A DNA stretch of 64,000 bases from Candidatus Kaiserbacteria bacterium (lineage in GTDB: Bacteria; Patescibacteriota; Minisyncoccia; Phycocordibacterales; UBA2100). Below the pieces are notes generated by a model that worked only from the letters and a program-made list of their open reading frames with translations, was not told the origin of the DNA and made no database searches. The stretch covers positions 13,785 through 77,784 of the forward strand of contig JACPLD010000005.1 in the NCBI GenBank assembly GCA_016186765.1, given 5' to 3'. Below, piece after piece: positions 35,730-38,416 of this stretch (position 1 is its first letter; each line of letters starts with the position of its first letter). Both the position numbers and the translations under genes were made by a program.

Positions 35730-35838
35730 ACCATGCGTTTATAAGTAGTAATAAATATACGCCTTCATTCGACGTTTTTACTATAGCACTGCGGCCTCAG
35801 GTCAACCAAACAGCATTAAATAACTTCCGCAACGGTTT

Positions 35839-36018
35839 TCATATTCCTATCCCCACTACTACCCTGCCGATTAGTTTCGCCATTTTCCGTCTCTCACTCC
35901 GAACATCCATACACCATGCATGACCCTTCAACTCAATTAAAGCTTCGAGGTACTTTTCAAGCGCTTTCCGGAAAGTGTTGCTATCAGGTATACGAGTTTC
36001 TTTGTCGATCGCCCTCAT
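35839..36018 (-). CDS. possible 59-aa ORF at the edge of the island
   Basis: The product is MRAIDKETRIPDSNTFRKALEKYLEALIELKGHAWCMDVRSERRKMAKLIGRVVVGIGI. It is AT-rich and sits just below the ORF-track size cut-off. It may be a remnant or a small regulator. Confidence 0.2.
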   Translation of the reverse strand: MRAIDKETRIPDSNTFRKALEKYLEALIELKGHAWCMDVRSERRKMAKLIGRVVVGIGI

Positions 36019-36055
36019 TCCCCGATCCTTGATCGAATCGAAGAATTGTCAAGCC

Positions 36056-37165
36056 CTATAGCTTGGAGAACCCGAGATCTTGGCCAACGGGCTTGACCTT
36101 TCCATCACTAACTACAGCGACGCCTAGCTCAAGTGAGTTGATAAAATTGACATACCCTTTATCGCCAGGCTCACGAGATGGAACTAAAATTCTATACTCA
36201 TCTTTAAATTCGATGTTCTTCTCGTCCTTAAATTTTCTGATGTCGAAGTAGTTATACTCAAAAAGCTGAACTATTCCCTTGCGTGCTTGAGATCTAAAGT
36301 TCTTACTCTCTGTACTTTTTACCTCGAAAAGGAACGAGCGTTTTCCGTTATGCGCAAATAAGTCAACAAACTCATTCGAGAGAGTGTTGTAACCTTTTGC
36401 TCTAAAGACATCGATAAGTTGCTGAACTATCGAATAATGTGTTGATTCGGCCCGAGCAAGAATGTCGTTATCGCGCTTAACGAGAGAATAGGGTTTTGTG
36501 ATGATTCGCTTGTTCACTTCCTCTAAAAACCTAAGAGAAGCAGCATGACGTAATGTTTCCGTTGCATTTTTCACTTCAAAGAAGTCTGACGGCTTCTCTT
36601 CGACCGTGCCACGTGTTGAGTGTCCTGAGTAAAGATAGAGGGGCCTCTTTTTGAACAAAATCTGTTCTGCGACTTCTCGTGAGACAGAGGAGAAGCTCCC
36701 CATCTGCGGAAATCCTCGAACCTCGGATATTGGTACGCGACCAGAAACAAGCTGATCAACAAGTCTCGACGTTTGTGTATCATTACTTGGAGTTGGTGAC
36801 TCCCATATGGCAGGATCGGGCAATTCGCTAAACAAATAAATTTCGGTTAGAGGTATCAGCAATGGCCATCGGTTCTCGTTGTTCTTTATTTCATAGTGCC
36901 ACAAATTGTTGTTTTTCTTGGAGAAATGGAAGCCGACTACGCCGATTCCTATAATTCCGGAAGTGGCATTTGGAAATGCCGATGCCTGCGGCCCCGTGCT
37001 GTGAATAAAGAAAATGTCTCCTGTTTGAATTTTCTTCCATCTTTCTCGATGACTTTCCTCGAGTCCCCAGGTCATGTATTTGACCGCGGTCAACCAGTGC
37101 TCGGGTGGGCCAGTAAATCTGAAAAATTGCTTCGTATCAAGCGCAGGAGTAAAGTCTGCATTCAT
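36056..37165 (-). CDS. EVE/PUA-like domain fused to a PD-(D/E)xK nuclease domain (predicted modification-dependent, Type IV restriction-like endonuclease)
   Basis: The N-terminal 130 aa (EHWLTAVKYMTWGLEES...GDIFFIHSTG...SGIIGIGVV...RWPLLIPLTEI) fit the EVE/PUA-like fold pattern. The C-terminus has D...ExK (VDLFAHNGKRSFLFEVKS...QLFEY). The start overlaps the MazG-like gene by 4 nt (ATGA). Confidence 0.5.
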   Translation of the reverse strand: MNADFTPALDTKQFFRFTGPPEHWLTAVKYMTWGLEESHRERWKKIQTGDIFFIHSTGPQASAFPNATSGIIGIGVVGFHFSKKNNNLWHYEIKNNENRWPLLIPLTEIYLFSELPDPAIWESPTPSNDTQTSRLVDQLVSGRVPISEVRGFPQMGSFSSVSREVAEQILFKKRPLYLYSGHSTRGTVEEKPSDFFEVKNATETLRHAASLRFLEEVNKRIITKPYSLVKRDNDILARAESTHYSIVQQLIDVFRAKGYNTLSNEFVDLFAHNGKRSFLFEVKSTESKNFRSQARKGIVQLFEYNYFDIRKFKDEKNIEFKDEYRILVPSREPGDKGYVNFINSLELGVAVVSDGKVKPVGQDLGFSKL

Positions 37166-37512
37166 AGTTTGCTGTACTTTGTGTATTTCCCTTTCGACTT
37201 CTTCACCGGATATCTCTTCGCGTTTTTCTCCATCTTCTTCTCAAAAGCTTTGCCTAGATCAATGCCGAGGTCGTGGCTCATGGTAAGCACCCAGTACAAA
37301 ACATCTGCTAGCTCCTCTCCAATCTCTTTTTTGTGCGCTTTGACATATTTCTCAATCTCCGCCTTTGTCGCTTTCCACTGAAAATGTTCGAGCACTTCCG
37401 CCGCCTCAAGAGTGAGGGAAAGAGCCATATCTTTCTGGTTGTGGAATTGTTTCCAGTTTCGCGCATCCCGAAACGCGATAACTTTCTTCTGAAATTCCTT
37501 AATATCAGCCAT
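37162..37512 (-). CDS. MazG-like all-alpha nucleoside triphosphate pyrophosphohydrolase
   Basis: The 116-aa product has RDARNW...LSLTLEAAEVLEHFQW...EELADVLYWVLTMSHDLGIDL, matching the MazG/HisE-type NTP-PPase domain. Confidence 0.65.
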   Translation of the reverse strand: MADIKEFQKKVIAFRDARNWKQFHNQKDMALSLTLEAAEVLEHFQWKATKAEIEKYVKAHKKEIGEELADVLYWVLTMSHDLGIDLGKAFEKKMEKNAKRYPVKKSKGKYTKYSKL

Positions 37513-37523
37513 CGCCTAGGACT

Positions 37524-37540
37524 ATCCCACAAATCTTCAT
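37524..37540 (-). promoter_or_regulatory. 17-nt motif ATGAAGATTTGTGGGAT lying 11 nt upstream of the MazG-like start codon
   Basis: An identical 17-mer, with a similar TTTG extension, lies at the same 11-nt spacing upstream of the next gene at 38272-38288. Confidence 0.35.
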
Positions 37541-37585
37541 GTTTGACTATTTCTTGCCAATCCAATTCAAGTTGGCCATGTAATG

Positions 37586-38260
37586 TTAATGGGGTTTGCT
37601 CAGATTCTTTGCAATTTCAGTTAGACTTTCAAGAATCTTTTCAGGTATGGTATTTGCGTCTGGTTTATGTTCTGGTCTAGCGCAGAGGACTTCTATCACT
37701 TCGTCTAGGAAGCGTTCTTTTATAACAGCGTCATCCGTCGAGGTAAATATGTTGTGATAAGCCTGCGCCATTGCTTTTCGATTCGCAAAGTCAATCCGTA
37801 GTTTATTGAAATGCGAGAACTGGCGTAATGAAAATACGAGTGCAGTAATAGTCAGAAAATTAATTATGTGATATTCGATCTTGTCGTACCAAAGTTTTCC
37901 CTCTCCTAACCACAAAGACACTGCGAACGAAACTGCAACAGCGACAAAAGAAATAATTGAGTATTTGAACCACTTTGTAGCATCACTCTGATATTCTGAT
38001 TCCTGGTCTTTGTATGCTTGTGCTAGTTTCTTTAATTCTCGATCGTTAAGTTGATCTTGTTTTTCAGAAACACTTTCCTTCAATTTCTCTACCTCGGCTT
38101 TGGCCGCATCCAAGTCCGCTTGCAGCGCTGCTTTCTCAGTAGCGAAAGTGGTGTCTTTGTTTGCCAGATCCTGTACACGCTGAGTTTCCTTGAGGCTTAT
38201 TTCGCCTTTCAGCGTGCTTATTTGAGTCTCCAGGTCTGCTCTACTTGACTTTTTTGCCAT
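37586..38260 (-). CDS. coiled-coil protein with two central TM helices (SLATT-like 2TM effector candidate)
   Basis: The 224-aa product has an N-terminal ~100-aa coiled coil, TM1 YSIISFVAVAVSFAVSLWLG, TM2 IINFLTITALVFSL, and a C-terminal helical region. Confidence 0.45.
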   Translation of the reverse strand: MAKKSSRADLETQISTLKGEISLKETQRVQDLANKDTTFATEKAALQADLDAAKAEVEKLKESVSEKQDQLNDRELKKLAQAYKDQESEYQSDATKWFKYSIISFVAVAVSFAVSLWLGEGKLWYDKIEYHIINFLTITALVFSLRQFSHFNKLRIDFANRKAMAQAYHNIFTSTDDAVIKERFLDEVIEVLCARPEHKPDANTIPEKILESLTEIAKNLSKPH

Positions 38261-38271
38261 GAAATCGAATC

Positions 38272-38288
38272 ATCCCACAAATCTTCAT
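38272..38288 (-). promoter_or_regulatory. second copy of the ATGAAGATTTGTGGGAT motif, 11 nt upstream of the coiled-coil/2TM gene start
   Basis: It is an exact 17/17 match to 37524-37540 at identical spacing to the start codon. Confidence 0.35.
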
Positions 38289-38416
38289 TTTGCCTAGCCC
38301 TTCGGAGCTTTAGCGAAGTAGGGGGGAACTCAGAGTCGGTGGCGCATCACTGGCATGACGCGCAGAAAAAGAGAGCGTAGAATGAGGGGTATTAGTAGGT
38401 AACAAAACCCCTTACT

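Follow-up and report, generated by a model that had tools for sequence, protein, structure and literature searches.

The analysed window is a 64-kb stretch of Candidatus Kaiserbacteria (candidate phyla radiation, CPR/Patescibacteria), and all coordinates below are given in its numbering. One low-GC island of the window carries three minus-strand open reading frames (ORFs), encoding proteins of 369, 116 and 224 amino acids (aa), adjacent to one another just as an earlier sequence-only reading had placed them. The subject of this report is the pair formed by the first two: a MazG-like protein, predicted to be a deoxycytidine triphosphate pyrophosphatase (dCTPase), and directly behind it a putative modified-base reader fused to a nuclease. 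The stop codon of the MazG-like gene and the start codon of the nuclease gene are joined in a 4-nt ATGA, as had been proposed when the two were called translationally coupled. The pair comprises the following features:

37162..37512, minus strand: MazG-like, predicted DCTPP1-type all-alpha deoxynucleoside triphosphate (dNTP) pyrophosphatase, 116 aa, assigned from Pfam matches, Protein Data Bank (PDB) matches and residues
37162..37165, minus strand: 4-nt ATGA overlap of the MazG-like stop codon with the nuclease start codon
36056..37165, minus strand: ORF of the reader-nuclease, 369 aa, with a modelled N-terminal EVE/YTH-like (PUA-superfamily) domain and a C-terminal PD-(D/E)xK domain
36611..37165, minus strand: N-terminal reader domain, approximately aa 1-185
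36056..36580, minus strand: C-terminal PD-(D/E)xK nuclease domain, aa 196-369 plus stop codon

In 400-nt windows the GC content of the island runs from 39 to 47%, and its individual genes have 41-46%, against 52-57% for the neighbouring genes and a mean of 55% for the window; the contrast first reported for it, 35-40% against 58%, was right in direction but overstated. Among 29 loci that carry the pair, its GC content was below that of the flanks in 26, by up to 20 points. Together with the low GC of the island, this agrees with the horizontal acquisition that had been suggested, and the island indeed looks horizontally acquired. Its content is limited to the nuclease gene, the MazG-like gene, the 224-aa gene and a 59-aa ORF, and the operon includes no cognate methyltransferase; the 369-aa and 224-aa proteins are 100% identical to the NCBI entries HYW60_03845 and HYW60_03855, respectively. 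A search for mobile-element boundaries found no flanking tRNA in or beside the island, no convincing terminal repeats and no Rfam match within it, and a promoter and terminator scan gave no useful excess over shuffle expectation.

A reader-nuclease fusion with a DCTPP1-like partner

The sequence-only reading had assigned an EVE domain and a PD-(D/E)xK domain to the 369-aa protein and had staked this on profile matches to both; the folds proved real, but no Pfam model of either kind scored above its cut-off. EVE (PF01878) gave no match at E ≤ 1, and the PD-(D/E)xK models Hjc (E = 0.0085, 16.5 bits against a cut-off of 21.1) and PDDEXK_9 (E = 0.075, 13.5 bits against 25.5) both remained below threshold. 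PRK00809 was the best NCBIfam match (E = 1e-3, 18.8 bits against a cut-off of 139), phmmer of the protein against the PDB returned only chance matches to Dcp2, and a profile of the C-terminal domain against PDB sequences returned only a marginal Hjc match (E = 0.025) and a spurious one to ATG9.

In a full-length AlphaFold2 model the C-terminal half was poor, with a predicted local distance difference test score (pLDDT) below 50, and the C-terminal domain was remodelled alone with a deeper alignment drawn from an exhaustive profile search. In the predicted structures, the N-terminal domain adopts a PUA-superfamily (EVE/YTH/SRA/ASCH) fold, and the C-terminal domain adopts the alpha-beta-beta-beta-alpha-beta core of PD-(D/E)xK nucleases, with its D...(D/E)xK catalytic motif intact. 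The motifs quoted for the protein from the outset (HWL, WG, GDIFFIHS, GIIGIG, D...EVK and QxxEY) are all present and are invariant in the nuclease family; within the C-terminal domain, the residues H243, D268, E281, K283, S284, R295, Q300 and Y304 are invariant among relatives at 20-42% identity and make up an hD...ExK...QxxxY signature.

Each of the two domains is a mobile module. The reader domain has relatives within AAA_5 proteins of the McrB type, alongside an MrcB_N domain, and the nuclease domain follows a canonical EVE domain of Pfam in one protein (P0211) and is joined in others to AlwI-N and to the methylase-associated domain MTaX1. EVE/YTH/PUA-nuclease fusions have been established by experiment as modification-dependent restriction enzymes for DNA that contains 5-methylcytosine (5mC), 5-hydroxymethylcytosine (5hmC) or glucosylated 5hmC (g5hmC) (Lutz et al. 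2019, PMC6765204), and the earlier view of the 369-aa protein as a fusion of reader and nuclease, in the manner of Type IV enzymes, is supported. Four proteins found alongside (P0161, P0202, P0233 and P0258) are large McrB-type restriction GTPases that hold two different reader domains in tandem, one related to the reader discussed here and one MrcB_N.

The 116-aa protein, judged by its residues and profile matches, is a true MazG-like enzyme, as had been read from its sequence: it matches PF12643 (E = 1.4e-17, 64.2 bits against a cut-off of 27) and PF03819 (E = 2.5e-8, 34.5 bits against 22), and it belongs to a family of more than 5,000 proteins at E ≤ 1e-10. Its nearest relatives in the PDB are the Archaeoglobus fulgidus pyrophosphatase 4qgp (E = 3e-18) and mammalian DCTPP1 (E = 1.2e-15), to which it is 34% identical over the aligned stretch. 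The residues of the DCTPP1 cytosine pocket are listed in a 2026 structural paper (PMC13291643), and were mapped onto the window protein through the HMMER alignment; DCTPP1 numbering was checked, and each named residue stood at its expected position. The metal ligands E36, E39, E67 and D70 (ExxE ... ExxD) align to E63, E66, E95 and D98 of DCTPP1 and are invariant in the clade. F41, W47, F50, H51, W73, D98 and Y129 of DCTPP1 correspond to F14, W20, F23, H24, W46, D70 and Y101, whereas I101 and Y102 are replaced by the aromatic residues Y73 and W74, such that seven of the nine alignable pocket residues (D98 included) are identical and two are aromatic replacements. Counted on the list that comprises the Trp47/Trp73 sandwich together with Phe41, Phe50, Ile101, Tyr102, Tyr129, His51 and His38, six of eight alignable residues are identical and two aromatic; His38 lies outside the aligned stretch.

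Pocket and metal positions are invariant or at least 90% conserved across the MazG-like clade, and among them is W20, the equivalent of Trp47, which in DCTPP1 is the pocket residue next to C5 of the base. Because the cytosine pocket is conserved, the comparison of residues points to dCTP or a C5-modified dCTP as the probable substrate. Such a pocket fits the earlier suggestion that the pair could act on both modified DNA and the modified dNTP pool.

Linkage, distribution and partners of the pair

Homologues of the pair were examined in 32 nuclease-centred loci and in 35 non-redundant other loci overall. A MazG-like gene lies directly upstream of the nuclease in all 32 of the former and all 35 of the latter, the -4 ATGA overlap is kept in 11 of the 13 junctions listed, and the pairwise distances of the two proteins are correlated (Mantel r = 0.52, a value reached in 0 of 5000 permutations). 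The conserved functional unit is the pair, sometimes accompanied by RadC. Homologues of the nuclease number 406, of which the best 120, at 67-86% identity, are spread across Kaiser-, Doudna- and Paceibacteria and other CPR groups. Among approximately 185,000 GTDB species the nuclease is found in 27, a patchy distribution that takes in CPR, a DPANN archaeon, Omnitrophica, Elusimicrobia, Aminicenantes and Firestonebacteria. It is absent from 2.9 million viral contigs, in which the MazG-like clade has one distant match (39% identity); on this near-absence, a phage origin of the pair was rejected.

The neighbourhood of the pair is typical of defence islands and consists mostly of defence or mobile genes: SoFic, AAA_14/DUF4143 (PDC-S01), DRT/AbiP2 reverse transcriptases, NYN, Mrr_cat, DpnI, methylases and an X-HNH protein. 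No family of PADLOC-DB v2.0.0 matched the nuclease or the MazG-like protein at E ≤ 1, and the pair matches no model there, in agreement with the view that the genes are not a named system. The most recurrent third gene encodes a RadC-like JAB protein (PF04002 + UPF0758_N), present inside or beside the operon in 11 of 35 loci (L008, L017, L020-L023, L027, L028, L034, L057 and L078) and placed either upstream of the MazG-like gene or between it and the nuclease; this suggests that RadC, MazG-like enzyme and nuclease form a real three-gene variant. In another locus (L005, 4112-9391), a divergent Pif1 helicase is encoded upstream of the pair, and a 232-aa X-HNH protein and a 499-aa reverse transcriptase (RVT_1) downstream; the same X-HNH protein also adjoins the pair in L007, L010 and L017.

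The MazG-like clade extends beyond this nuclease. Of 80 metagenomic loci sampled around the MazG-like gene (57-83% identity), 67 extended far enough downstream for the next gene to be scored, and for most of these the gap to that gene was -4 to +5 nt. The downstream gene encoded a DUF2075/Schlafen-group-3 helicase in 39 of the 67, the EVE-like nuclease in five, proteins with a common N-terminal domain that end in HNH or NOV_C/DUF3883 in four, and RadC in three; the remaining 16 had another gene or none. The DUF2075 partner (L037 and L040-L119) is a protein of 600-790 aa, with an N-terminal RIDF...ELK nuclease-like motif and with or without a C-terminal S24 peptidase. Its gene begins no more than a few nucleotides from the end of the MazG-like gene, and its layout is that of Nhi-like proteins. 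No significant relation between the C-terminal domain profile of the window nuclease and the N-terminus of the DUF2075 partner was found by hhalign, and the two nuclease modules are therefore not of the same family. In a further locus (L039, 3845-5825), the DUF2075 partner is cut at its P-loop by an insertion sequence element with HTH_Tnp_1 and rve transposase genes, and the effector is inactivated.

The N-terminal domain common to the HNH and NOV_C proteins carries a signature, WG...W.K.Q.GD...LW...N.WP, that is also found in the window reader. Support for this likeness is weak: by hhalign, the domain of L044 gave E = 2e-4 at 47% probability and that of L070 was not significant. The NOV_C form matches PD-T4-1 (E = 2e-24) and PDC-S36, and a weak match to mREase_IV also occurs among the nuclease partners of the clade. 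Annotated plasmids bear out the pattern (L121, L122): on plasmids of the Bacillus cereus group, the MazG-like and DUF2075 genes adjoin one for an HNH protein, and on a Priestia aryabhattai plasmid (NZ_CP083270.1, L121, 3349-7255) the order is MutT, a McrB-N-type (MrcB_N) protein, the MazG-like protein (4-nt overlap) and the DUF2075 helicase, flanked by a restriction endonuclease and a Type I restriction-modification system. The MutT of this cluster is a second nucleotide-pool sanitiser beside the MazG-like module.

From these loci we conclude that the window operon is one member of a mobile operon family, in which the first position is constant, a predicted DCTPP1-type dCTPase, and the second is variable, a DNA-targeting effector. 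Nhi-like proteins are the commonest partner of the clade, and the predicted dCTPase is therefore a shared accessory of DNA-targeting defence effectors. A broader proposal, which we advance tentatively and would sooner doubt than adopt, is that the DCTPP1-like dCTPase is the hallmark of an undescribed and widespread class of immune operons with a modular build. Through its translational coupling to interchangeable effectors (EVE-like-PD-(D/E)xK, reader-HNH, PD-T4-1-like reader-NOV_C, Nhi-like DUF2075 and separate McrB-N-type readers), the sanitising or starving of the nucleotide pool would be built into each operon, and a modified base would be acted on both as free nucleotide and in the polymer.

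A proposed restriction module with a pool-sanitising partner, and its alternatives

The interpretation that we favour, with somewhat better than even confidence, is that of a Type IV-like restriction module that depends on DNA modification and whose obligate partner clears modified dCTP from the nucleotide pool. It is built on the gene structure, the folds, the catalytic and pocket residues, the strict co-occurrence and co-divergence of the pair, its foreign composition and its defence-type neighbourhoods, all described above, and from these we infer which base the reader recognises, what the enzymes do and that the phenotype is one of defence. The unit would be a mobile two-gene operon, MazG-like dCTPase first and reader-nuclease second. 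The EVE/YTH-like domain would flip out and recognise a modified base, most likely a C5-substituted cytosine, upon which the PD-(D/E)xK domain would cut the DNA; the co-translated MazG-like enzyme would hydrolyse the matching modified dCTP to its monophosphate. Two roles of this hydrolysis may be envisaged, and they are compatible with one another. The one that we rank as more likely to be primary is self-protection, in which modified nucleotides from degraded foreign DNA or from salvage would be kept out of the host chromosome, which would otherwise become a substrate of the cell's own nuclease. The other is attack, in which a phage whose DNA is made from a pool of modified dCTP would be starved of it.

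Self-protection would explain the strict translational coupling, the near-absence of the enzyme from viruses and its use with several modification readers. It would also account for the very high conservation of the dCTPase, because the target is a small molecule and not a phage protein. We place self-protection first and attack second, followed by a repair-type maintenance role and then by plain depletion of dCTP.

Several observations weigh against a modification-dependent restriction module. The reader matches no Pfam EVE model, and its fold alone cannot separate a reader of DNA from one of RNA, or a reader of 5mC from one of N6-methyladenine (6mA). His38 of DCTPP1, which falls outside the aligned stretch, is one of the two selectivity filters proposed for cytosine in that enzyme. 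At 67-86% identity across CPR classes (best 120 homologues), the nuclease is conserved in a manner more housekeeping-like than arms-race-like, and nearly a third of loci (11/35) have, within or next to the operon, a gene for RadC, a protein by tradition associated with DNA repair. C5 cytosine methylases are encoded within approximately 2 kb of the pair in 2 of 28 loci, which is awkward if any 5mC is targeted. Finally, the Nhi-like protein, the commonest partner of the clade, is not known to depend on modification, and the dCTPase may therefore have a more general role.

Some of these points would suit genome maintenance, which we consider an unlikely account of the pair. Here the dCTPase would rid the pool of dCTP that is modified or non-canonical, and the reader-nuclease, in some genomes with RadC, would nick host DNA at the same base once it had been incorporated; the logic resembles that of RdgB with endonuclease V or of MutT with MutM/MutY, and would be especially useful in small, salvage-dependent genomes such as those of CPR and DPANN lineages, in which the nuclease is enriched. 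The very high conservation of both proteins, the recurrence of RadC (in variable order), the MutT gene adjoining the related module on the Priestia plasmid and the precedent of DCTPP1 as a housekeeping sanitiser all speak for such a role; a nuclease that is rare and patchy and compositionally foreign in 26 of 29 hosts is, however, unlike core repair, and its neighbours are mostly defence or mobile genes. In addition, the other partners of the clade are of defence type (Nhi-like, PD-T4-1-like and the weak mREase_IV match), and relatives of the reader domain sit in McrB-type restriction proteins.

Less probable again is a defence by depletion, in which the main task of the MazG-like enzyme on infection would be to remove canonical dCTP, or several dNTPs, and so to stall phage replication, with the nuclease as an independent second effector. 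Nucleotide depletion is a published mode of defence for dCTP deaminase and dGTPase systems, and DCTPP1-type enzymes do hydrolyse dCTP itself (PMC7162842); the coupling of the clade to Nhi-like helicase-nucleases, which have no known modification sensing, likewise argues for a role that is independent of modification. Yet the 116-aa enzyme contains no sensor or regulatory domain and is constitutively co-translated with its partner, and unregulated loss of dCTP would be costly; conservation of W20 and of the whole hydrophobic pocket, moreover, fits the C5-modified substrates of DCTPP1.

Set beside characterised systems, the reader-nuclease half of the restriction module proposed here would be a sequence-divergent new member of a known enzyme type, and it is the pairing with a dCTPase, and the reuse of that dCTPase, that is apparently undescribed. 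The PUA-superfamily reader-nuclease Type IV enzymes include the EVE/YTH-like-HNH proteins TspA15I, VcaM4I and CmeDI and the PUA-like-PD-(D/E)XK protein YenY4I (PMC6765204); the window protein differs from them in having no detectable Pfam EVE membership, in its nuclease, which constitutes a distinct PD-(D/E)xK family (D...ExK...QxxxY), and in its obligate, translationally coupled partner, a predicted DCTPP1-like dCTPase. No dCTPase partner is mentioned in Lutz et al. 2019 (PMC6765204), and the survey of EVE contexts by Bell et al. 2020 contains no mention of MazG, pyrophosphatase or RadC. McrBC and the archaeal McrB proteins with YTH/EVE-like N-domains differ in that the window module has neither GTPase nor McrC, its nuclease being fused directly to the reader. 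END nucleases and CMoRE, described in papers of 2025-2026, have different architectures and lack a dNTPase.

The MazG-like protein shares with DCTPP1 (RS21-C6) the PF12643/PF03819 families, the four metal ligands, the Trp-Trp cytosine sandwich and most pocket residues, with no alignable counterpart of His38; DCTPP1, however, is a stand-alone housekeeping gene product of 170 aa, whereas the window protein is prokaryotic, has 116 aa and is encoded by the mobile first gene of nuclease operons. T4 gp56, a dCTPase/dUTPase, belongs to the same all-alpha NTP pyrophosphatase superfamily, likewise with cytosine nucleotides as likely substrates; in contrast to it, the window clade is essentially absent from viral contigs, and its closest relatives in structure and sequence are cellular, of DCTPP1 type. 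Nhi and Nhi-like systems, in which an N-terminal nuclease is joined to a DUF2075 helicase, partner the same MazG-like clade, whereas the window effector has no helicase or DUF2075 domain; each was reported as a defence of one gene (Bari et al. 2022, Millman et al. 2022), with no mention of MazG in the Millman 2022 preprint. A literature search found no relevant paper joining EVE, MazG and restriction, DUF2075 and MazG, or MazG and Type IV restriction, with subscription journals mostly outside its coverage, such that an earlier description is possible.

In the broader class tentatively proposed above, the dCTPase would also solve a problem that has so far gone unrecognised in modification-dependent restriction, autoimmunity through the salvage of modified nucleotides. 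Type IV enzymes of the reader-nuclease type have been regarded as systems of one gene; should their action endanger the host, in that modified nucleotides re-enter its own DNA through salvage, a dCTPase that always accompanies them would expose an unseen price of restriction and the way in which cells meet it. Such a partner would, moreover, be the bacterial equivalent of DCTPP1 in its protection of mammalian methylation patterns. Because the clade exceeds 5,000 proteins and stands ahead of several defence nucleases, including Nhi-like ones on Bacillus cereus-group plasmids, the principle would reach well beyond CPR. On the practical side, the new reader domain and the compact nuclease are candidate tools for the detection of modified bases.

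The 224-aa protein and minor features of the island

The remaining features of the island, all on the minus strand, are the following:

37586..38260, minus strand: coiled-coil membrane protein, 224 aa, divergent relative of DUF6161; in the same low-GC island, not a component of the conserved module
37524..37540, minus strand: 17-nt element ATGAAGATTTGTGGGAT, copy 1, ending 11 nt upstream of the ATG of the MazG-like gene
38272..38288, minus strand: 17-nt element ATGAAGATTTGTGGGAT, copy 2, ending 11 nt upstream of the ATG of the 224-aa gene
35839..36018, minus strand: ORF, 59 aa, just downstream of the nuclease gene in the low-GC stretch; gene status uncertain

The 224-aa protein was initially described as SLATT-like, with two central transmembrane (2TM) helices, and was taken as the membrane effector of a three-gene system. 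It has a charged N-terminal region of approximately 85 aa followed by one strong hydrophobic segment (101-119) and one weaker segment (127-145). The SLATT label did not hold: no SLATT match to the window protein was obtained in Pfam at E ≤ 1, nor was SLATT among the 25 families most often matched (E ≤ 0.1) by 14 members of its family. DUF6161 matches 4 of these 14 (best E = 4e-6), though not the window protein itself, and the family profile gave nothing meaningful against the PDB.

The family has 16 members, and only one of the 35 loci with the pair contains one (L034). There, the gene for the 2TM homologue comes right after a RadC-MazG-nuclease operon, with NYN and Mrr_cat encoded in the same island, and its position relative to the pair disagrees with that in the window. 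Since it is absent from the other 34 loci with the pair, the 224-aa protein is a separate gene of the island, outside the conserved module. That the reader-nuclease, the MazG-like enzyme and the 2TM coiled-coil protein form one system, with the last as a membrane (abortive-infection) effector, is accordingly very improbable: the shared low-GC stretch, the identical 17-nt element 11 nt upstream of both the MazG-like and the 224-aa starts (unique in the window) and the arrangement in L034 would favour it, but the protein is missing from nearly all pair loci, differs in position in the one that has it, shows no SLATT match, and elsewhere in its 16-member family adjoins a Type III-like Mod/Res pair, HEPN_AbiV, or LexA with a C5 methylase, without the pair.

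The 17-nt element is identical in its two copies and has no other match in the window at up to three mismatches; it may be a shared 5' regulatory or translation element. With one mismatch it recurs upstream of the MazG-like gene in another Kaiserbacteria locus (L001), and with two mismatches upstream of the 2TM homologue in a Wildermuthbacteria locus that lacks the pair (L035). A role as a family-wide signal was rejected, the element being confined to the Kaiserbacteria loci and that one of Wildermuthbacteria.

The 59-aa ORF has a GC content of 45.6% and a Pfam match to the ribbon-helix-helix family RHH_3 below cut-off (E = 0.004), and no homologue of it was found in 32 related loci; it may be a small regulator, or no gene at all. 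In the Wildermuthbacteria locus (L035, 1665-4118), an 817-aa protein with no Pfam match is encoded directly after the homologue of the 224-aa protein and before the HEPN_AbiV gene; this protein could be a defence partner, so far uncharacterised, for members of the DUF6161-like family.

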